Source: a virus. Taken from it: DNA of 10,034 nt. Location: the UHGV virus genome UHGV-0283685, one strand, 5' to 3'. Positions 181 to 10,034 of this stretch are shown here, piece after piece. The position numbers were made by a program, and so were the translations under genes. The notes beneath the pieces are model-generated. The model was not told where the DNA came from and made no database searches. It saw nothing but the letters and a program-made list of their open reading frames with translations. Position 1 is the stretch's first letter. Every line of letters begins with the position of its first letter.

Positions 181-2832
181 TTACACTCCTGATACTTCAA
201 TAGATAGTTGAATCTTATTTGGCATCTTGTTGCTTAAATATATGGTTGCAAAGTCAAACGAAATATTTAAGTTATTTTCATCACCATCATTATCTGAAAG
301 AACTCCGGTTTTCAATACAACATTTTGCTTATTAATTTCTTTTAAAGGAGAAAAATCAATTGCCTCACCACGATGAATAAGAACACCAACTGCAACTACC
401 CCATGAATATCAAGTATGTCGTGCATATCAAGGCGAACACATGGGACGTATCCACCAACAAGGATACTTGTAGATTTGTTGGCTTCAAGTGTTATTAGAT
501 ATTTTCCGTCTGGTTGAACTATTGTTCCTGCTATTCCATCTGGCGTGTTGAACATACCGCAGTATCTGTATCCTGCTCCAACAGGAACAATTCTGTTACC
601 GCCAAGATCATGGAAATTTCGAACAATTATTGCACCAGGAACTGATGAATAAACCATTACTGCCTCTGTTTGCCCTGATACAGAGTCTGATGTTTCTGGG
701 TTCGCCATGCATAAATTACCACCAAAATAAATATTTTGGATTAGAGGGGTGAGGCCATCATTAACCTCAAAACGTAAAAAGCCCTTGAGAACAGTCCTTG
801 CGGTATTATTCTTAATAACAACAGGAAGTTCTTTATAGTAAGAGTTTCTGTCTGTCTGTGCCAGAGTTGTTTCAATAAAAACAAAAGGTCTGTGATTACG
901 TTGAGTTGCATTCACAGGTTTGTACCTCAAGTTGTATGGCAAAGACATCTCAGTAAAACCATCAATATAATTACAGTTCTGAATCGTGAACCCACCACCA
1001 CTATATCTTACAAAAAAAGGAGCCGGTCCGCTAAATCCCCTGGCGTTCATTCCATCATACACTTCATTTAATCCGCGTATTACACCAGCATAATACAAAT
1101 TGACTGAATTGCCGCCTGTAAAAGTTGTTTCGTATGATGGGCCGTGTCCACCGCAACATGAATTTCTTGTATCGCCATCAGGGAAAAATTTAACTCCATC
1201 ATATGCAGTTCCACCACCCATCATCGTTGGATTTATAATGTTATTATACAGTGATACCATTTGAGTCCCGCTTACATCAAGCCCCCTCCTGCAAGCAAAT
1301 GCTATCATATCCACGACTGTGCAATAGCTGCTATTGTATATTTCAACACCATAACCAGTGCCGTTTGTTAAATCATATGCACGGTTTGAGTATTCAATAT
1401 ATGGCTCTATTATTTTCGTTCTGTAGCATGACTCAAGAAAAATTCCAGTTTCTGAAAAGCCGATTAGTTTTATTCCTTCTATATGCATATCAACAGCGCC
1501 ATCTATCACAAGACCACGGAACCCCAAATCACCAGGAGATGCGTTCTGCGTGACAGGTCTTTCAAAATTGAAATCACCGACAATTCTGCCGTAGCATGGT
1601 TTTCTTTTATATATATTTGCCTTTCTTGTGATTTTAAACACGTCTCCAACAGATGGTTTAAACGGGAATGGTCCCTGAGCATATTCAAATTTTGCTGTTT
1701 TAGTGTCGTAATCCCAATGAGTTATGTATCTTGATATTCCGGCGTTAGCTCCGGTGACACCTGTTACTTTTACCTGATTGTATTGTTTTGTTAATGTTGC
1801 ATCATTACCAAATGAGAATTCACCTCCGGATACAGATGCTGTTACGGTCGTTGAGTAATCATTGCTCGCAGAGTAGAAAAAATAAAATGCACCTGATATC
1901 TCCGCTTTTTTTGTTGCATTATCAAAAGCAGTAACAACATGCATTTCACCTTCACAAGCCTGTCCTCTATTATCTGTCTGAATTAAGCGATTGCCATGAA
2001 TCATAATTATATCGCCTGCATCAACAGAATATGCTGAGTTAATTGATATTGATGTGTCACCAGGATTTATTGTTGAATTATAGTCAATTGGCGTGGCATC
2101 TCCACCTTCGAGTCTTATGAAATAATCATCAATCCAGTTTGGACCAAGAGGCTCTTTTGCGGTTGACTTTAAGACAACCTTGCCATCAGCTACCCAGTCA
2201 TAGTTATAATTATCCCCGCCGCATTTTATGCGGCTAATCAAATACACACCAGAATCCCACTTCAGGCGTTTTCTGTTAGATGCGCAGTAAATGATGGCAT
2301 TTGTTATTGCGTATGTATCGTCAGTAATGCCATCCCCTTTTGCACCAAAATCGCGAACATTTACATGGTCATCAAGTTTATCCTGTAGCGTCCTTTGTGT
2401 TGCTCCGTCTACTTCTTCTGGAAGACCGTACTTATAATTTATAATTGATGGAGTTGAACCATTGTTAAACTTATTCTCTAGTTCTTGTTTAAACTGATCA
2501 GGATCATATTTCAGAATGTTTGGAAAATAGAACTGCTGCGCCCCATAAGCATCGTAAACAGCCATAGAATGGCCTTGCACGGTTACGAATTTGGCAATCT
2601 GTCCGTTATATACCGGATATCCAGCAGCGTTAATGATGATTGGTTGCGAAACAGGAACGTGAGAACCGTCTTCGTTCTCCACATAAACCTGAATCTGGTT
2701 TTCAGGATTTACCGGGTCAGTGTCAATTTTTCCGATATAAATTTTGCCATTGGCTACGGCTTTAAAAGAACGAGCCATAGTGAAGAGTTGCGAAGGCATC
2801 GATACGATCACATTGGCTGTAATGTCTGTCAT
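181..2832 (-). CDS. Tailspike protein: P22 gp9-like N-terminal head-binding domain fused to a long, different receptor-binding region (883 aa)
   Basis: N-terminus [11 protein letters not shown]...[37 protein letters not shown]...[15 protein letters not shown]...LKYDPDQ closely matches the recalled P22 tailspike N-terminal domain; the remaining ~770 aa does not resemble P22 gp9. ATG at 2830-2832 with GGAG 8 nt upstream; stop TAA at 181-183. Confidence 0.9.
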
Positions 2833-2964: not shown

Positions 2965-3222
2965 ATGATGTACAGCAAATACGATGAGGCGCAGTTCCAC
3001 TTGAGGCTTACGCACGAGTTGCACGCTAAGATTAAGCAGCGTGCAAAAATGAATAACAGGTCTATCAATTCCGAAATTGTGGCTACGATGGAAGAATCAC
3101 TCTCCAAACCATCACCTGTAAGCGGGTATCGTGATGAAGAAGAGAGGTTGGCCTCATTAATCTCGGAGCGAGTAAAAGAAGTTGCGGCTGATATCCTTAG
3201 AAAAGAAAAAACCCGCGATTAA
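2965..3222 (+). CDS. mnt: Mnt-like ribbon-helix-helix repressor, second paralog (85 aa)
   Basis: FHLRLTHELHAKIKQRAKMNNRSINSEIVATMEESLSKPSPVSGYRDEEERLA aligns along most of its length with recalled P22 Mnt (…NGRSMNSELLQIVQDALSKPSPVTGYRNDAERLA…). Start moved from the track's TTG at 2884 to ATG 2965, which has GGTGAGG 5 nt upstream and gives an N-terminus of Mnt-like length. Stop TAA 3220-3222. Confidence 0.75.
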   Translation: MMYSKYDEAQFHLRLTHELHAKIKQRAKMNNRSINSEIVATMEESLSKPSPVSGYRDEEERLASLISERVKEVAADILRKEKTRD

Positions 3223-3230
3223 GCGGGTTT
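3211..3230. terminator. Bidirectional intrinsic terminator between convergent genes
   Basis: GC stem CCCGC (3212-3216) / GCGGG (3223-3227) with loop GATTAA, flanked by AAAAGAAAAA upstream and TTT downstream. The U-tract is stronger for minus-strand transcripts. Sits between the Mnt-like stop (3222) and the 73-aa ORF stop (3237). Confidence 0.6.
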
Positions 3231-3236
3231 AGTTGG

Positions 3237-3458
3237 TTAGTTATCAAAAAGTCCGTACGTTTCTTCTTCTTCAGGTGTAAGGGGAAGAATCTCTACTCTA
3301 TCTATAGATATCTTTTCAATGTACCCATGAGGTCTACTTAAAATTAAAGCTCTCTCATGCCACAGAACTCCAAGAATGTGATACCTTCCAGCATCGCCTT
3401 TTACCCTGGCTCTTCCTTTGATTCTTGGCGGCATAATGCCATATTTTTTCTTTGCCAT
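3237..3458 (-). CDS. Hypothetical basic protein (73 aa), translationally coupled to the upstream gene
   Basis: ATG at 3456-3458 overlaps the upstream stop as TAATG. N-terminus is Lys/Arg-rich (MAKKKYGIMPPRIKGRARVKG). No own SD within normal spacing. No family recognised. Confidence 0.5.
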   Translation of the reverse strand: MAKKKYGIMPPRIKGRARVKGDAGRYHILGVLWHERALILSRPHGYIEKISIDRVEILPLTPEEEETYGLFDN

Positions 3459-4186
3459 TATGCAACATTACTCCCATGAATCAGGTGTTGTAGTGCTTTA
3501 ACACCTTCCTCATTGTAGCGGAATGCTTCCACCTGTTTGCTGGAATGCGCAGATTTATCCAGGAAGAACTTCCCGTACTGCTCAGTTTTGAGGTTGTTTG
3601 CGTTAGCAATGCGACCAATCTTGTTGGCCGTTACTCCAAGCTGCTCTGCAACCTCCCCTGCTGAGTAGTAATGCTCTTCTATTGCTGGAAGAGGTATTGC
3701 ATTAAAACCAACGATCGGGTTGATTATGCTTGCTGCCGCAGTCTGCTTTGCTTCCGGCGCAAGATTTGGCATCAAATCGAACAGATTGGTAACAGCTTCA
3801 ACCGTCATTTTCAATGTTCGCGCCTGGCGATACTCAACAAGTCCACTAGACGATTTACCGCTTTTAATGTGCGCTTCTTGCATACTTTCAAGTTGGTCTA
3901 CAAGTGAGCGGCGAACAGCTTTAGATTCACGAGCAGCCACTCGAAGGGCTTGCTTAATTGACATAACAACTTTTTCAGAAGTTGTCTTGTTTGATTTTTG
4001 AACTACGAAAATTTCGTAGTGCTCACCTTCAAGTTCATCCTTAATGCGTGCAATAAAGTCGTTATTGCGGACTTCTTTTTCCCCGCACTGTCTACGAGCA
4101 TGATTGACCATCTCTAACAGGTACTGGCTATCAATGGTTTTATCCGTGACAACGGATCCGATGTTTGCTACATTCTTAAAAGTCAT
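3458..4186 (-). CDS. Phage antirepressor/regulatory-like protein with C-terminal KilA-C/ORF6C-type HTH-like segment (243 aa)
   Basis: C-terminal YSAGEVAEQLGVTANKIGRIANANNLKTEQYGKFFLDKS...GVKAL has the look of the DNA-binding C-terminal domain of phage antirepressors. Start set at ATG 4184-4186 (AAGGAA 6 nt upstream) rather than the track's GTG at 4237, which lies inside a terminator hairpin. Confidence 0.65.
   Translation of the reverse strand: MTFKNVANIGSVVTDKTIDSQYLLEMVNHARRQCGEKEVRNNDFIARIKDELEGEHYEIFVVQKSNKTTSEKVVMSIKQALRVAARESKAVRRSLVDQLESMQEAHIKSGKSSSGLVEYRQARTLKMTVEAVTNLFDLMPNLAPEAKQTAAASIINPIVGFNAIPLPAIEEHYYSAGEVAEQLGVTANKIGRIANANNLKTEQYGKFFLDKSAHSSKQVEAFRYNEEGVKALQHLIHGSNVA
4146..4174 (+). 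promoter_or_regulatory. Candidate antisense promoter (sar-like copy 2)
   Basis: -35 GTGACA (4146-4151), 17-bp spacer, extended -10 TGcTACATT (4166-4174), located just inside the start of the minus-strand gene at 4186. The motif TTTGCTACATT nearly matches TTTGCTACAAT at 4885-4895. Confidence 0.35.
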
Positions 4187-4255
4187 TAGGCATTCCTTAT
4201 GTGGTAGTAAGGGTGTGACATAGGCCGCCAGCAGCACACTGGCGGTTTTCTTTTT
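4181..4255 (+). ncRNA. Candidate sar-like antisense RNA 2 (about 75 nt), complementary to the RBS and start codon of the antirepressor-like gene at 3458-4186
   Basis: Predicted start about 7 nt after the -10. Ends at a strong plus-strand intrinsic terminator: stem 4224-4231 / 4239-4245 (7 bp), loop CAGCACA, then TTTTCTTTTT (4246-4255). On the minus strand the same hairpin lacks a U-tract. Confidence 0.35.
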
Positions 4256-4274
4256 GCGCCGTCCGGCGCACCAA

Positions 4275-4901
4275 TCAATGAATCCATTCCTCGCCGCGCA
4301 GTTTTGCCAGCATTGGCTGAGCGTTCTTTACGACAAAATTGTTGGTATCAAGATTCTTCATTTCACGAAGAAGTGATTTCTTGGTTTCTTCTGACATGTA
4401 GCGAGTCTCATATGCAATATCGTAAATCCTTCCTGAAAGCTCAGAACCAATTTGCTTCATTCCTGGGTAGATGTGTTTGCACATTTGTTGACTCTTCTCC
4501 ATCCACAATTGTAAGTAGCAGAGATTAACCAGTTCTTCGTCAGTAAACTGTTTTGCAATCGGTGAGCATTCTGCCTGCCGATCCAAAATATCCAGCACCC
4601 AGCGGCGGAACTCTTTGGCTACCTGAGTGCGAGCAAACATCGCGATTAGGTGGGCACCGCGTAGTGAGAAAACACGCACTTTTTTACGATAATTTCCTGA
4701 GGTACTCACTTCGAGTACCTGAGTCATTCCGGCGCTAAACTCATCGCTATACTTGTTATAAATCATTGTTACTGCACGACTATTTGCGTATTTAAGTGCA
4801 GATGCAATATTAGATGATGTAAACCAAACACCATGCATATCACGGGTGGGCACCAATTCAACTCCGTGGAAGTTGTAATCTGATTTTGCTACAATATTCA
4901 T
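4275..4901 (-). CDS. ant: Antirepressor with Bro-N domain (Ant-like, 208 aa)
   Basis: YNFHGVELVPTRDMHGVWFTSSNIASALKYANSRA...LIAMFARTQVAKEFRRWVLDIL fits the Bro-N fold pattern. It sits directly downstream of arc, as ant does in P22. Start set at ATG 4899-4901 (AAGGAA 6 nt upstream) rather than the track's 4985, which overlaps arc. Confidence 0.75.
   Translation of the reverse strand: MNIVAKSDYNFHGVELVPTRDMHGVWFTSSNIASALKYANSRAVTMIYNKYSDEFSAGMTQVLEVSTSGNYRKKVRVFSLRGAHLIAMFARTQVAKEFRRWVLDILDRQAECSPIAKQFTDEELVNLCYLQLWMEKSQQMCKHIYPGMKQIGSELSGRIYDIAYETRYMSEETKKSLLREMKNLDTNNFVVKNAQPMLAKLRGEEWIH
4887..4895 (+). promoter_or_regulatory. Candidate Psar-like antisense promoter (extended -10)
   Basis: TGcTACAAT (4887-4895) on the plus strand, immediately next to the ant start codon (4899-4901). 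No convincing -35. Confidence 0.35.
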
Positions 4902-4976
4902 GTTAGTTTCCTTGCATACGGTTACTGACATAGAGGCCCGGTTTGTGTTCACGCACTGCCGGGCTTCACTATTTTT
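4902..4976 (+). ncRNA. sar: Candidate Sar-like antisense RNA (about 75 nt), complementary to the ant RBS and the arc-ant intercistronic region
   Basis: Position and orientation match what is known for P22 sar (a small antisense RNA of about 68-69 nt from the arc-ant intercistronic region). Plus-strand hairpin GGCCCGG (4935-4941) / CCGGGC (4959-4964) followed by TTCACTATTTTT (4965-4976). Confidence 0.4.
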
Positions 4977-5148
4977 ACTGGGCATTAGCTCTTTCCTCTC
5001 TCAGGCTTTTAGCCAGTCGCTGCACAATCGCAGAGTTGATAGAAATTCCATCCATTTCAGCAACACGTCTAATCTCCTCCTTCATTCGCGCTGGCAAACG
5101 AAGCTGGAAACTTTGACTTTTACGACCTGTGTAAAGCACATCTTTCAT
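4975..5148 (-). CDS. arc: Arc-like ribbon-helix-helix repressor (57 aa)
   Basis: SFQLRLPARMKEEIRRVAEMDGISINSAIVQRLAKSLREE aligns with recalled P22 Arc (QFNLRWPREVLDLVRKVAEENGRSVNSEIYQRVMESFKKE). Start set at ATG 5146-5148 (GGGAGAA about 6 nt upstream) rather than the track's GTG at 5161-5163. Stop TAA 4975-4977. Confidence 0.8.
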   Translation of the reverse strand: MKDVLYTGRKSQSFQLRLPARMKEEIRRVAEMDGISINSAIVQRLAKSLREERANAQ

Positions 5149-5169
5149 AAGTAATTCTCCCACAATGAT

Positions 5170-5223
5170 ACCAACTTGGTTCTAGAACCAATTTAACACC
5201 ATTTATTTTGATGTCAAGTTGGT
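5170..5223. promoter_or_regulatory. Operator cluster: 16-bp perfect palindrome TTGGTTCTAGAACCAA plus extra TTGGT/ACCAA half-sites
   Basis: Perfect palindrome at 5176-5191. Overlapping palindrome ACCAAcTTGGT at 5170-5180. A further caagTTGGT at 5215-5223 overlaps the -35. All lie between the divergent arc (-) and Mnt-like (+) starts. Confidence 0.55.
5190..5217 (-). promoter_or_regulatory. Candidate Pant-like promoter for arc-ant
   Basis: On the minus strand: perfect -35 TTGACA (plus 5212-5217), 16-bp spacer, -10 TAAATT (plus 5190-5195). Predicted start falls inside the 16-bp palindrome. Confidence 0.5.
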
Positions 5224-5259: not shown

Positions 5260-5580
5260 ATGAGCAAGTTCCCTAGTCATGAAATGGATAGGTTCAATAT
5301 CAGGCTTCCTGCAGGAATGCGGGATGCTATAGCTGAACGAGCCAAACGTAACGGCAGATCAATGAACTCAGAGATTGTTCAGATACTGGAAGATGCCTTG
5401 AATGCAGAAAATACACTCGGGGAAATAGCAGATAAAATCAACAGCGTCTCGGTTCCGCTAAATGTTGATGCGCTAGTTCAACTTCAAGCCCAGGTTATCG
5501 CCATGCAAAAAGAAATACAGGAAAAGTTCAGAGAGCAGAACGAAAAGTTGAGAGAACTGCTAAACAAAAAAACCACCTGA
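5260..5580 (+). CDS. mnt: Mnt-like ribbon-helix-helix repressor with C-terminal coiled-coil, divergent from arc (106 aa)
   Basis: RFNIRLPAGMRDAIAERAKRNGRSMNSEIVQILEDAL closely matches the recalled P22 Mnt RHH region (RAEANGRSMNSELLQIVQDAL), and the C-terminus ends KKTT as Mnt does. The C-terminal half is heptad-like (LVQLQAQVIAMQKEIQEKFREQNEKLRELL). ATG 5260 with GAGG 4 nt upstream. Occupies the mnt position opposite arc. Confidence 0.8.
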   Translation: MSKFPSHEMDRFNIRLPAGMRDAIAERAKRNGRSMNSEIVQILEDALNAENTLGEIADKINSVSVPLNVDALVQLQAQVIAMQKEIQEKFREQNEKLRELLNKKTT

Positions 5581-5606: not shown

Positions 5607-5678
5607 GACCATATTGACTACTCATAAAATGAGATCAATATTTAATCGCCCAATAACGGGTGCATGTTGAGGTATATC

Positions 5679-5858
5679 ATGGCGAAAAAACCAGGTGAAA
5701 ACACAGGAAAAAACGGCGGAATATACCAAGAAGTTGGCCCGCGCGGAGGTAAGAAAGACAATTTTGCCACCGTCAAGGACAACGAAAGGCTTCCGCCAAC
5801 AACAAAGCCAGGTCATGGCTGGGTATTAGATAAGCGAACTCCAGACAGCAAAAAGTAA
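5679..5858 (+). CDS. Small hypothetical protein (59 aa), possibly YjzC-like
   Basis: ATG 5679 with GAGG 6 nt upstream (the track's 5664 start lacks an SD). MAKKPGENTGKNGGIYQEVGPRGGKKDNFATVKDNERLPPTTKPGHGWVLDKRTPDSKK is Gly/Lys/Pro-rich. The pattern KPGE..G.NGGIYQEVG...G...LPPT...G..W resembles the small YjzC-like proteins as I remember them. Candidate promoter upstream: TTGACT at 5614-5619. Confidence 0.55.
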   Translation: MAKKPGENTGKNGGIYQEVGPRGGKKDNFATVKDNERLPPTTKPGHGWVLDKRTPDSKK

Positions 5859-5864
5859 TAATCA

Positions 5865-5886
5865 AGCCGGGTCACTCCGGCTTTTT
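5865..5886. terminator. Bidirectional intrinsic terminator between convergent genes
   Basis: Stem GCCGG (5866-5870) / CCGGC (5877-5881), loop GTCACT, then TTTTT (5882-5886). An A-rich run on the other side (5851-5865) serves the minus strand. Overlaps the stop (5872-5874) of the 121-aa gene. Confidence 0.5.
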
Positions 5887-6237
5887 GATATGTCGCTCGC
5901 AGAACTCAACAAGCCTGCTCATTAAGTAGCAGTAAGTCTCGTTGGCTCTTCCTGGTTCAACATCAACGCCGACCCTTGAGCAGATATCGAATGCCATGTG
6001 AGCGCACTCATGGGCAATAGTAGATAGTTTACCATTGAACACACCTATCACATGCAAAACACCATTCTCGCTGCTCATTGTATGAGACGCTCCGTTGGCA
6101 TCCGAGTCCTGCACGTCCACGCCAAGTTTTTGATGCAGGCGTTGCCATTCTGGAAAGTCTCTGCAAAACACAATTGTACCGCTCTCAAAGAGCGGAACGA
6201 GCATTTTTGGTACGTTTCCAATGTTAACTTTTTTCAT
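5872..6237 (-). CDS. Hypothetical protein with HExxH zincin-like motif (121 aa), possibly a minimal metallopeptidase
   Basis: Uninterrupted 122-codon frame with ordinary coding composition. ATG 6235-6237 with AGGA 4 nt upstream. Contains STIAHECAHMAFDI, with several Glu residues 14-30 aa downstream that could supply a third zinc ligand. No family assignment possible without a search. Confidence 0.6.
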   Translation of the reverse strand: MKKVNIGNVPKMLVPLFESGTIVFCRDFPEWQRLHQKLGVDVQDSDANGASHTMSSENGVLHVIGVFNGKLSTIAHECAHMAFDICSRVGVDVEPGRANETYCYLMSRLVEFCERHIKKPE

Positions 6238-6267
6238 GGTATCCTGCTCAAAACTAAGGAGGTTGGT

Positions 6268-6495
6268 GTGAAGCGATGGTTCCTCATAATTACTGTTTTC
6301 GCGATCATTTACACTATTTTCCCTGCATTAAAAGCACCAATGCAAATAATTTCACTAGCAATAATTTCGATTAGTGCTTTCATTGCAGTAGCCGTACTTG
6401 TGTTTAAGGTTTTAAAGTTTTTAGTTTGGCTATCAAAAGATGATGGATGCAAAGTTCATCAAGAAAAAGAAGGCAAAATAACCAAAGTTGACTAA
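6268..6495 (+). CDS. Small hydrophobic protein with two predicted TM helices (75 aa), GTG start
   Basis: Strong SD AAGGAGG (6256-6262) 5 nt before GTG 6268. Two hydrophobic segments (WFLIITVFAIIYTIF and MQIISLAIISISAFIAVAVLVFKVLKFLVWL) then a charged tail. AT-rich. Its stop overlaps the gp16-like stop on the other strand by 3 nt. The track's N-terminal extension to 6052 is antisense to the 121-aa gene and was rejected. Confidence 0.5.
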   Translation: MKRWFLIITVFAIIYTIFPALKAPMQIISLAIISISAFIAVAVLVFKVLKFLVWLSKDDGCKVHQEKEGKITKVD

Positions 6496-8615
6496 CTGTC
6501 ACTAGCGAGCCATGTAATAATCCCCGTGCGGGCAATGGTTTTTGCTTCATCTGTTGATAAGGTTTTCTCCCATCTCTTAAATGCCCCAGATTGCATCAGT
6601 TTCCTTTCTATTGCGCGTCTCACTTCTGCTCTGTCTACTGGTGCGTTTTGCAGGCGAAATAGCATTGATTTAAACTCAGGAGAAGATAGCAGAGCATCAG
6701 CAGCCTTTATCCTGCTTGTTTTCCCTGACATCAATGCAGACGTTATCACCCCTGTTGCACCTACACCAGGGAGACCAGATAAGCTTGTAATACCTTCCGC
6801 CGCAGCAGCTTTTGAGGCTATTCCATAAATTTTTGCGAGACTACCCTTTTCTTTCAGAAAGTTATTAACTTGCTGATCCACAAGACTACTAGCATACTGC
6901 TTACCAGTATTGAGTCTATTCATAGCCTTAGCTGCTTGATAAATCGTATCAAGGCGCTTTGATGCATCTGTGCCAATAGCATCACGGAGAGCCTTCATAT
7001 TGGCCCCATTGCGTGACATTCCGTTATACCATTTTACAAATCCATCAACTCCTAATTGCTGACCAGGTGATTTGGCATAGCTGGTAAATGCTTTATTCAT
7101 TGAGGTGAGCGCAACTTCCTGCCGCATATCCTTTGGAATCGACTTCATTAATTGCCTAAAGTCGCCACCGTTTCCTTTTGCCATATTAACAACAGCACTT
7201 TCAACTTTTGGAATTGCTGATTGCTGAAGTTTTCTACCCAAGACGGTTACAGCATCATCTTCAATGGATTTTCGTTTTTTTACCAACTCCTTACCAAGCG
7301 TCCATAATTCCCCTGCGCCATATTTTTCTGCGACAGCCTGTTGGTCATCTGTTATGGCTGCATATAACTTTTTAAGAACACCTGTTTCTTCATCCTTGAA
7401 TGGACCAGAGCCTTTGCCAATAGCTTGTCCAACCTGCTTTCTAGCGAGATCTAAACGCCCATACGTTGGCAAGGTGTTTGGATCAAGTCGGTTCAATGTC
7501 CGCTTCATTATTGGAGATAATTCATCAATTCCACCTATGTCATCAGCAAAATCCTCTAAAAAATTCAATGTATTAGTTGCCTCAATCCGGTCTCTTACAG
7601 GAACCTTTTCGGCAATTTTGTTGTAGATGTTATCTGACTGATTTTGTAATGATGAAATGGTTTTATCAAAATTATCTGCAAGCCTGTCAGAAACCAGTTG
7701 CTTATCAAGGCTTCCCCCAAATGAAGTTATCATTTCATCAGCTTTTCTTCCTAATTCAGTAATAAAACGCTTATGCGCCTCACTAATCTCTGTTCCAGGG
7801 AGACTTGCCACTGCATTATCAAGAGCCCTGACAGCAGGATTATTAGAGATCATGCCTGGAGTGGCATAATTTTCCAGTTCTAGCTCACGAATAGCATTTA
7901 TCGCGTTAAAATCAGGATTAACTTCATCGGCGAAATCTTGAATAGCTCGTTGCCCGCCGATAAATTTATTGTCCATTGCGCCAGCAGCTTTCTTTAACGT
8001 TGCTTTAGATGATTTACTACCCATCCCTACGGATGAGCGATAAATATCTCCGGCACTATTTTTAATTTTTCCTGCAATCTTCCCAAGCGCTGGACCAACA
8101 ATCTCGGCTACAGGGCCAGCCACAGCGCCAATAGCAGCGCCGGAAGCAACATCGCTATTTGTTCCATTGGCTACAATAGCCCCTTCTCCAGCACCAAGCC
8201 CTGCGGCGGCAGCCAGCCTTGCCGCCCCTTTCGGAACCTGAGAAATAATCCCACCACCACTAACAAATGGCGCTGCTTGTCCAACGAACTCACCAACATC
8301 TTGTGCGGTTGATGGTTTTGCCGCTAACTTCTGCTGTAGAGACTGAATTGCGGCTTGCTCTTCTGGTGTCATGTCCTGAAACAGGCCAACACCTTTACCA
8401 ACATCCATCAATCCACTGAGAACGCCATACATAAAACGGTCGAAGCCGTTAGCATTATTAACAACATTTTCCTGTCTGGAATTTTCCTCTAGTGAAACCA
8501 AAGGAGATTGCTGCTGTTCTGGTTGTGCATCAAGCACAAAGCCATCAGGAAGCTGTGAGTTATCAGGCTGATTATCGAGAACAAATCCTTCGGGTAAACC
8601 TACATCGGTTGCCAT
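6492..8615 (-). CDS. DNA-ejection (injection) protein, P22 gp16-like (707 aa)
   Basis: Last of three consecutive late-operon genes just before the immI-like region, in the same order as P22 genes 7-20-16. ATG 8613-8615 with AGGAA 6 nt upstream, overlapping the upstream gene's stop by 16 nt. Gly/Ala-rich segments and an N-terminal tandem repeat. Assignment rests on synteny and size, not a verified alignment. Confidence 0.7.
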
Positions 8616-9943
8616 TGTCCGTTCCTATAAATGAGTTTCTGACCAGTTTTAGGGTTCGTTGCCGTCGCGCCTTCTGATATCCCACTTGGCGCAGCTTTTG
8701 TCTGCCCATTACCACCTTGTGGTGTAGGCTGCGCTGGGACATCGTCAAATAGCTTGGCCTTCCTTCTCCCTAAGCTTTTTTTCAGCCCTTGAGGAATAGT
8801 ATCTCCATACGTATCCAGATATTCGTCTACCTGCTGGTTAAACTGCTGCCCCATAGCGTTGGCGTTAATTTTGGCTGCGTTAACAATGTTATCCCTCGCT
8901 TCCTGTGACAAGCCATTCCCTGCATTAAGCTGGTCTACATATCCTTTTATCTGCCCCCATATGCCATCAGAGCGCATGACCTGAACCTGTTCACCTTCGC
9001 GAACAACTGACTGAGGGTCGAGAGACTTCATGTAATTAAAGATAATCCCAAGTTGGGCAGCGCCAGTATTTACCTTGCTAAGGGCTTGCAGAGAGTTTGC
9101 CGCCGCTCTGACAGAGTTATAATTTTTGCCAAAATTGGTAATATCAGAATTTAATCCCTTAATTAAGTCTGCTGACGGCTTACCTTTTTGCCCCAGCTCC
9201 ATTAGCTTCAATCCCATCTCATCTGAGTGCATTTGTGCCCGCTGAGCCCTGTCTAGTTGAGCATTTTGGATATTTGCCCATCCTCTCGCGTTCTCCATGT
9301 CAGCCTGACGGATGCTTTCATCCAATCGCCCTTTCTCAAGTTGGCGACCAACCATCTTATCCTGATAATCCAGCATTTTATCCGGACCAACAGCCCCTAG
9401 CGTCATAGTAGTCAGCATGTGTGATAGCTGCTCTGGATTCTGAATACCTGTCTGAATCATCCAGTCAGCATTAGCACCAACGCGATTTAACCTGTCCTTG
9501 TTGTCAGTAATGAATTTACTGTAGGCTTCCGGCCCCTGAGAAAGAGCGACGTTAGCCCTCATGGCTAAATCGCCCATATCGTTGCGTTGCTGATCATTAA
9601 GACCGGAAAACGCCTGTTGTGCCTGTGCAACAAACGCTGGATTTTCCTGGGCAAACTTAAATAGTCCCGATGGATCACCAGAAGCCCATGCATCAGCGTG
9701 AACCTTATTGAACGCACTAATAGCTTTCTGTTGCTGTTCCTGATTGTAAATATCAGCAACTCCAGCCAGACCACGTAACGCGGTCAGACCAACGTTATTT
9801 GCACCTGAGCGAGCCAGTTCATTGTTTTCGCGGATCAGACCAAGCGTTGCGTTAATGTCGCTTGCCTTTGGCGCATTCTCATTTTGCGCACCAATGCCAG
9901 CCAGAAAACCACCAGAATTAATACCCTGTTGCCACGTAGCCAT
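8600..9943 (-). CDS. DNA-ejection protein, P22 gp20-like (447 aa)
   Basis: Middle gene of the three-gene set (P22 gp20 is about 471 aa). Start set at ATG 9941-9943, 4 nt after the upstream gene's TAA, rather than the track's GTG at 9955, which lies inside the upstream gene. Gln/Asn/Ala-rich. Assignment by synteny and size. Confidence 0.7.
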
Positions 9944-9947
9944 TGAT

Positions 9948-10034
9948 TTACCCACGTCCAGTTAAAGTGTAAGCCAGCGCCTTATCCATTAATCCCCGAG
10001 CAATTTCGTGGATCGTTGGCGCAACTCCTACCTC
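9948..10034 (-). CDS. C-terminal fragment of the upstream late gene (gp7-like position), 28 codons plus stop
   Basis: Minus-strand frame is open from the window edge to TAA at 9948-9950 (…[28 protein letters not shown]), immediately followed by the gp20-like start. Identity inferred from position only. Confidence 0.4.

Follow-up and report, generated by a model that had tools for sequence, protein, structure and literature searches.

Results

An open reading frame that starts on the stop codon of an antirepressor-like gene

The virus genome UHGV-0283685 contains a stretch of 10,034 nucleotides (nt), called the window here, which corresponds to the end of the late operon in a prophage of the P22-like (Lederbergvirus) type. 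We analysed two adjoining genes on its minus strand: a P1-Ant-like antirepressor gene of 242 amino acids (positions 3458-4186; hereafter the Ant-like gene) and, directly behind it, an open reading frame (ORF) of 73 amino acids (3237-3458), whose product we call ORF73. The region of the pair is found unchanged in E. coli 55989 (NC_011748.1; 100% identity) and at 91.5% identity in phage JEP4. The Ant-like gene is preceded by the Shine-Dalgarno (SD) sequence AAGGA (4198-4194), starts with ATG at 4186-4184 and stops with TAA at 3460-3458; the ORF starts with ATG at 3458-3456 and stops at 3239-3237. An earlier note on this DNA had placed the start of the ORF on the upstream stop codon, and its coordinates are exact: the junction reads GCA TAA TGG, with a TAATG pentamer in which one base is shared by both genes (1-nt overlap).

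The label 'antirepressor-like', which the note gave to the upstream gene, is fair. The protein matches PHROG 1726 ('anti-repressor') with an E value of 9e-101, and its residues 14-106 align with residues 112-206 of Ant1, the characterised antirepressor of P1, at 59% identity (~95 amino acids, E 2e-32); outside this domain, the two proteins have unrelated C-terminal halves. No Pfam or NCBIfam match was found for it, and its family comprises 2099 clusters. Judged by sequence, the Ant-like protein is a true homolog of P1 Ant1 with a putative antirepressor activity.

The small ORF is a selected gene of a widespread family

ORF73 is a protein of 8.4 kDa with an isoelectric point (pI) of 9.4. Its N-terminus is strongly basic, as had been noticed earlier, with 8 Lys/Arg and no acidic residue among the first 20 amino acids and a net charge of +8 over the first 25. 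Residues 1-73 match positions 1-73 of the PHROG 4977 profile (E 1.1e-53), a group whose function label is 'unknown'. Seven alleles of the ORF differ at 15 sites, 11 of which are third codon positions (one of them within the stop codon), and only three amino-acid changes result, all conservative (K5R, I49V and V55I). For the most divergent pair of alleles the ratio of nonsynonymous to synonymous polymorphism (pN/pS) is 0.012/0.149, or ~0.08. Both alternative frames across the ORF contain many stops.

The homology search that the earlier note had proposed found the frame conserved among relatives: an exhaustive HMMER and profile search gave a family of 91 clusters, with profile E values down to 5e-28. 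Members come from Pseudomonas, Stutzerimonas, Serratia, Klebsiella, Citrobacter, Salmonella, Burkholderia, Vibrio and Aeromonas, and are carried by phages, plasmid-like contigs and genomic islands of gamma- and beta-proteobacteria; relatives 33-49% identical to ORF73 reside in elements of Pseudomonas, Serratia, Klebsiella, Burkholderia and Vibrio. Their common motif is (K/R)KYGxMPP...A.V(K/R)GDAG.Y.VWGxDW...R.G...V, and an acidic tail comes after it. The charge of the family is bipolar, with a median of +4 over the N-terminal 25 residues and of -3 over the C-terminal 15. Taken as a whole, the family is neutral (median pI 6.7), and acidic proteins ending in an acidic tail account for 38 of 63 members; the window protein stands at the basic extreme, and its extra basic residues R12, K14, R16 and R18 are limited to its own lineage. 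The 73-codon frame is a genuine selected gene, because it matches PHROG 4977 over its full length, has a low pN/pS and has homologs across genera.

Several searches returned nothing. Neither ORF73 nor eight remote homologs matched Pfam or NCBIfam, PADLOC gave no match for ORF73 and four homologs at E<=0.01, and a literature search by protein accessions and PHROG numbers found no papers. A Pseudomonas-type family member had no match among viral contigs, nor did the window ORF73 among species-representative genomes. Three homologs (P0011, P0017 and P0015) are fused to other domains of unknown function, none with a Pfam match; two fused homologs have a common C-terminal extension of ~85-95 amino acids (YTVWGG...), and one has an N-terminal extension of ~125 amino acids with a GYFYF motif.

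Three homologs (P0003, P0004 and P0006) have frameshifted N-termini. We rejected the idea that these mark the basic N-terminus as dispensable, because the two contigs examined, the Logan contigs of P0003 and P0004 (L003 and L004), are error-rich with fragmented neighbour genes, the changes map to homopolymer runs of A6 and G3 (window 3441-3452 and 3404-3406), and the motif is conserved in distant homologs. The frameshifts are most likely sequencing errors rather than biological. Programmed frameshifting at the A-run was likewise rejected, as the run, read from the sequence, lies outside the X XXY YYZ register.

The start codon of the ORF is predicted to be masked by a hairpin

The pentamer TAATG and a GGGAG motif are invariant in all 49 ORF-bearing loci (7/7 annotated and 42/42 from IMG/VR). 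GGGAG (3471-3475, minus strand) is an SD-like motif that lies 12 nt upstream of the ORF ATG within Gly-Ser codons of the Ant-like gene, and it is mostly unpaired in the predicted structural ensemble (pairing probability 0.08-0.37). Alleles lacking the ORF encode the same C-terminal peptide, HGSNVA, written GGC TCA AAT GTG GCG, a wording in which the SD-like motif, TAATG and the 5' arm of a hairpin are all absent. The earlier note had stated that the ORF has no SD of its own. This stands for the canonical spacing, where none was found, but not for the wider upstream region, given the invariant GGGAG that is spelled by synonymous codons in ORF-bearing alleles only.

The 5' arm belongs to a predicted RNA hairpin, GCAUAAUG...CAUUAUGC (3431-3463, minus strand; 8-bp stem, ~-12 kcal/mol), which would sequester UAAUG. 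GCAUAAUG pairs with CAUUAUGC 17 nt downstream, in the codons of the conserved GIMP motif, and in a 181-nt context every base of UAAUG is predicted to be paired with a probability of ~1.0. The hairpin is conserved throughout the IMG/VR loci (42/42), apart from one G-U change and one mismatch. A stop/start overlap and a downstream start predicted to be poorly accessible, both marks of a coupled pair, were accordingly found at the same junction. The proposed dependence of ORF translation on the upstream gene is supported in silico by the UAAUG overlap, the hairpin-buried AUG and the weak placement of the SD-like motif, suggesting that the ORF is probably translated only by ribosomes that finish the upstream gene.

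In free-standing distant homologs the equivalent start is preceded, at a distance of 6-8 nt, by an SD that belongs to the gene itself (AAGGAGG or GAAGGA). Since distant homologs are free-standing with a strong SD, the coupling would be, on this sequence comparison, a derived, lineage-specific wiring.

The ORF comes and goes behind nearly identical Ant-like genes

Three allele groups can be told apart among the Ant-like proteins, with 86-91% identity between groups; within every group, proteins that are 98-100% identical occur both with and without the ORF. In the isolated phage phiKp_30, and in E. coli EN-1077, 'numer 3' and OZ040950, the Ant-like gene is followed directly by the same terminator, so that the ORF is present or absent as a clean indel. 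Among complete E. coli genomes the Ant-like gene was found in 76 and the ORF in 54, and the Ant-like family as a whole is ~20 times larger than that of the ORF (2099 versus 91 clusters). In E. coli 3CM (locus L008, 5001-5030) only TAATG and 29 nt from the start of the ORF are left, joined to unrelated DNA, behind a gene for an Ant-like protein identical to that of the window; this shows a recent loss of the ORF, along with the convergent Arc-like gene described below. The pair also occurs among the tail genes of a prophage that is not of the P22 type and has baseplate genes.

Profile and BLAST searches found no Ant-like gene near the remote homologs of the ORF in 24 of 25 loci. The single exception is a Serratia prophage, in which an antirepressor gene whose product has the N-terminal domain type of the Ant-like protein is found two genes away from the homolog. 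Other remote homologs are found among small genes of unknown function on islands and plasmid-like contigs, and still others follow genes for ejection-like and small membrane proteins where late operons end. The co-occurrence and co-variation expected of an obligate two-protein module were not found. The earlier suggestion that ORF73 is a modulator or chaperone of the upstream protein is not borne out by these data: every allele group includes members lacking the ORF, phiKp_30 lacks it, the genome counts differ (54 versus 76) and nearly all remote loci are without an Ant-like gene.

Predicted fold of ORF73

The structure search proposed in the earlier note was run with an AlphaFold2 model of ORF73, built from a 10-sequence alignment, which has a predicted local distance difference test (pLDDT) score of 81 and shows five strands with a helix at the C-terminal end. 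It predicts an SH3-like barrel of five strands, flanked by a basic N-terminal arm with the KYGxMPP motif and by an acidic tail, and this fold matches SH3, Tudor and KOW domains. The matches to such small barrels (Tudor, SH3, KOW and the retroviral integrase C-terminal domain; for example, 6wau_A, 2cub_A, 8a1p_A and 1m1g_A) share 6-17% sequence identity with ORF73, with no family-level signal, and compare solved structures with a predicted one. Neither the conserved KYGxMPP arm at the N-terminus nor the acidic helix and tail at the C-terminus is characteristic of the SH3-like barrel families. A profile search of PDB sequences gave nothing below E 0.19, and Foldseek against the viral BFVD returned uncharacterised proteins only (E>0.01). 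The predicted fold fits a small binding module, whose ligand could by its fold be either a protein or a nucleic acid.

Position of the pair in the operon

Read along the minus strand, the ejection genes are followed by small genes of unknown function, a divergent Mnt-like gene, a Pant-like promoter, arc and ant; after ant come the Ant-like gene, the 73-amino-acid ORF, a terminator, a convergent Arc/Mnt-like gene and the tailspike gene. The two ejection (DNA transfer) protein genes lie at 6492-8615 and 8600-9955 (both minus strand), and the Mnt-like gene at 5260-5580 (plus strand). The Pant-like promoter upstream of arc (5190-5217, minus strand), proposed by its match to the sigma-70 consensus, reads TTGACA-16-TAAATT; it has 10 of 12 consensus bases and an extended -10 TG, and is the sole promoter-like site on the minus strand from 5700 to 2700. 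We presume it to be the start of an operon whose last gene is the 73-amino-acid ORF.

The arc gene (4975-5163, minus strand; 4975-5148 in the shorter RefSeq form) encodes an Arc-like ribbon-helix-helix repressor (Pfam Arc PF03869, E 1e-11; RefSeq label 'Arc family DNA-binding protein'). The product of the first antirepressor gene, ant (4275-4985, minus strand; RefSeq start at 4901), combines a BRO-N domain (Pfam Bro-N, E 1e-9) with a P22AR_C domain (Pfam P22_AR_C, E 4e-14) and matches PHROG 245, 'anti-repressor Ant' (E 5e-65). No promoter-like or terminator-like site was found on the minus strand between ant and the Ant-like gene. The operon is predicted to end at an intrinsic terminator with an 8-bp G+C-rich stem and a T-run (3201-3230, minus strand), 7 nt past the stop codon of the ORF, which is found 3' of the ORF in 42/42 IMG/VR loci in two sequence versions. 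One other terminator-like site on the minus strand inside the operon, a weak one with a 5-bp stem, lies within ant (4845-4831).

The terminator hairpin is common to the 3' end of the convergent gene, whose stop codon falls within it. This second Arc/Mnt-like ribbon-helix-helix gene (2968-3222, plus strand; 85 amino acids, Pfam Arc E 1e-14) is outside the operon, and is labelled 'Arc family DNA-binding protein' in RefSeq and 'regulatory protein mnt' in JEP4; its presence or absence is independent of that of the ORF. Beyond it lies the tailspike gene (181-2832, minus strand), encoding 883 amino acids with a P22-type head-binding N-terminus. The tailspike of the otherwise identical 55989 prophage region has 659 amino acids, and relatives have other tailspike variants or insertion sequences (IS5 in EN-1077 and IS3 in E. 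coli HS). Such variation fits a recombination hotspot adjoining the region of the ORF.

The arrangement is that of a P22-type immunity I (immI) region: it occupies the slot between the ejection genes and the tailspike gene, three genes match Pfam Arc, and an Ant homolog is present. Background on arc, ant and sar of the P22 immI region is given in PMC12111858. The slot from the ejection-protein genes to the tailspike gene has been defined as the 'ant moron' of the P22-like late operon and described as the most fluid part of that operon and a hotspot of gene flux, with 10 types among 16 genomes (PMC2629481). The window has three other small genes in this slot, at 5664-5858 (plus strand), 5872-6237 (minus strand) and 6052-6495 (plus strand), assigned to PHROG 3202 with a weak YjzC-like match, to PHROG 1365 and as a probable membrane protein, respectively. 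Pieces of the Ant-like gene itself, 38-53 nt long (window ~3995-4040) and carrying the palindrome ACTACGAAA/TTTCGTAGT, occur at 89-100% identity in unannotated DNA of ~290 complete E. coli genomes. In the two loci that were checked (L085 and L086, ~1501-1540) they lie between genes for a 'phage DNA ejection protein' and a TOPRIM/DUF927 or DUF5906 primase, and the pieces are probably what is left of ant morons that decayed within another widespread element.

A candidate antisense RNA opposite the start of the Ant-like gene

On the strand opposite the Ant-like gene, facing its SD and start codon, we found a candidate antisense RNA unit with a putative regulatory role (4146-4258, plus strand). 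It consists of a promoter-like site, GTGACA-17-TACATT (4146-4174), and a terminator made of a hairpin and a T-run (4222-4258), and the predicted RNA, 78 nt long, would fold into two stem-loops. Across 12 loci the block shows 100% identity, whereas the adjacent coding DNA is 85-90% identical, and in strain A41 the identity ends directly past the T-run. We dropped the assignment of this candidate as the sar RNA of P22, since it had no match in Rfam, sar included, at E<=1. If real, the antisense RNA would also gate the coupled ORF.

Discussion

A probable coupled accessory gene rather than a dedicated partner

We favour, as the probable explanation, that the 73-amino-acid ORF is a real accessory gene and the translationally coupled last cistron of an operon arc, ant, P1-Ant-like gene, orf73, and that its product is autonomous rather than a dedicated partner of the Ant-like protein. 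The operon would be transcribed from the Pant-like promoter and would end at the terminator just past the ORF. The AUG of the ORF, locked in the 8-bp hairpin, would be closed to free ribosomes; a ribosome finishing the Ant-like gene would melt the hairpin, would then probably be held by GGGAG 12 nt upstream, and would re-initiate. Because the AUG would be locked and opened by the finishing ribosome, synthesis of the small protein would be tied to that of the Ant-like protein, so that ORF73 would be made only alongside it and roughly in proportion to it. Like the Ant-like gene, ORF73 would be controlled by Arc/Mnt and probably also by the antisense RNA. Most likely, ORF73 acts as an autonomous accessory ('moron') protein that binds a target in the host or in a rival element; the ORF would then be plugged into the antirepressor operon for timing, with its product neither a subunit nor a chaperone of the Ant-like protein.

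The chance that the frame is a mis-annotation or a chance ORF that is left untranslated appears negligible. It is short and without a Pfam or NCBIfam family, as such frames are, but purifying selection acts on its alleles, its family is conserved across genera, a compact fold is predicted for it with confidence, and the alternative frames are filled with stops. It is also unlikely that the gene is translated independently, with GGGAG serving as an ordinary distant SD and the overlap reflecting genome compaction only. The motif is conserved and predicted to be mostly unpaired, and stop-start overlaps are frequent in phage genomes, all of which would suit independent initiation. However, a 12-nt spacing is suboptimal for an SD, the AUG is predicted to be fully paired in a conserved hairpin, and the free-standing homologs have much stronger SDs at 6-8 nt.

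Two further explanations concern what the protein does. ORF73 might bind the Ant-like protein and modulate, chaperone or inhibit it, with the coupling setting the stoichiometry of the two. The 1-nt overlap, the full linkage in the close lineage (7/7 annotated and 42/42 IMG/VR loci), the joint move of the pair into a non-P22 prophage and the antirepressor neighbouring the Serratia homolog all speak for such a partnership. We nevertheless consider it quite improbable, given that identical or nearly identical Ant-like proteins occur without the ORF in all three groups (phiKp_30 included), that the Ant-like sequence does not co-vary with the presence of the ORF except in its last synonymous codons, that the Ant-like family is so much the larger, and that remote homologs have their own SD and, in all but one locus, no Ant-like gene nearby. 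Alternatively, the barrel and its basic arm might bind DNA or RNA, like integrase C-terminal, KOW or Sso7d-type domains, in which case ORF73 would adjust transcription of immI or of the late genes, or the expression of host genes. The strong N-terminal charge and the location of the gene within a regulatory operon are consistent with this, but the same range of Z scores takes in purely protein-binding SH3 and Tudor domains, the family is on the whole not basic and most often ends in an acidic tail, the four extra basic residues are lineage-specific, and no solved DNA-binding protein matches in sequence. We regard a nucleic-acid-binding regulator, a role that the earlier note had also raised, as a less likely reading.

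Several points weigh against our preferred explanation of a coupled, autonomous accessory gene. In the close E. coli/Salmonella lineage the ORF stands behind an Ant-like gene in 49/49 loci, which together with the Serratia neighbour leaves room for a link to antirepression. The loss of the ORF from prophages shows that it is dispensable, not that ORF73 and the Ant-like protein do not interact. GGGAG might, even at a 12-nt spacing, allow some independent initiation; the z-score of the junction fold is modest (-2.3); and the argument for coupling is drawn from sequence and predicted RNA structure. Finally, 'autonomous binder of a host or rival target' names a class of function, and the matches of the predicted fold are generic.

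Implications

The feature is of an ordinary kind: a moron gene, probably translationally coupled, for an uncharacterised, widespread small protein. It provides a natural example of a mobile accessory gene wired into an existing regulatory operon, in which insertion of the ORF was accompanied by a synonymous recoding of the last codons of the upstream gene that gave rise to the SD-like motif, the UAAUG overlap and the start-masking hairpin. It also cautions against taking a tight gene overlap as a sign that two proteins are physical partners. The family, with ~90 clusters and no Pfam entry, is found in mobile elements of several pathogens and is a candidate for anti-defence, antirepression and host-takeover screens. 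More speculatively, and with low confidence, the family may be a new class of minimal SH3-like effectors on phages, plasmids and islands (for example, a mini-antirepressor, or an anti-defence or host-takeover binder using the KYGxMPP arm), which in P22-like phages would be doubly gated, by translation of a P1-type antirepressor and by an undescribed sar-like antisense RNA.

Comparison with known systems

ORF73 matches the whole 73-position profile of PHROG 4977 and is a member of no named protein family beyond it; the wider family reaches into plasmid-like and island contexts and into Pseudomonas and Burkholderia. In classical termination-reinitiation coupling, known from bacterial and RNA-phage operons, UAAUG or UGAUG overlaps are combined with a structured downstream start. 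The present pair, known from sequence, resembles these cases in its overlapping stop and start, its hairpin-buried start and its weak, distant SD inside the upstream gene.

The region resembles P22 immI in occupying the same slot, in its divergent Mnt-like gene, Arc-like gene and subsequent BRO-N/P22AR_C Ant gene, in its mosaic make-up and in the candidate short antisense RNA opposite the ribosome-binding site of an antirepressor gene. It differs from P22 in having an extra P1-Ant-type antirepressor gene, the coupled 73-amino-acid ORF and the second, convergent Arc/Mnt-like gene, and the antisense candidate is located at the second antirepressor gene, whereas in P22 the antisense RNA lies between arc and ant.

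The nearest analogue is the P1 immI operon (c4 antisense RNA, icd, ant1/ant2), where a small ORF is translationally tied to an antirepressor under antisense (C4) control. The P1 icd gene is likewise an ORF of 73 codons, overlaps ant1 by 4 nt and is annotated in its record as 'apparently required for expression of ant'. ORF73 was rejected as a relative of P1 Icd or of Coi, the small P1 repressor-inactivator, as BLASTP gave no alignment with either at E<=100. The two systems also differ in gene order: icd lies upstream of ant in P1, whereas in the window the 73-amino-acid ORF lies downstream of the Ant-like gene.

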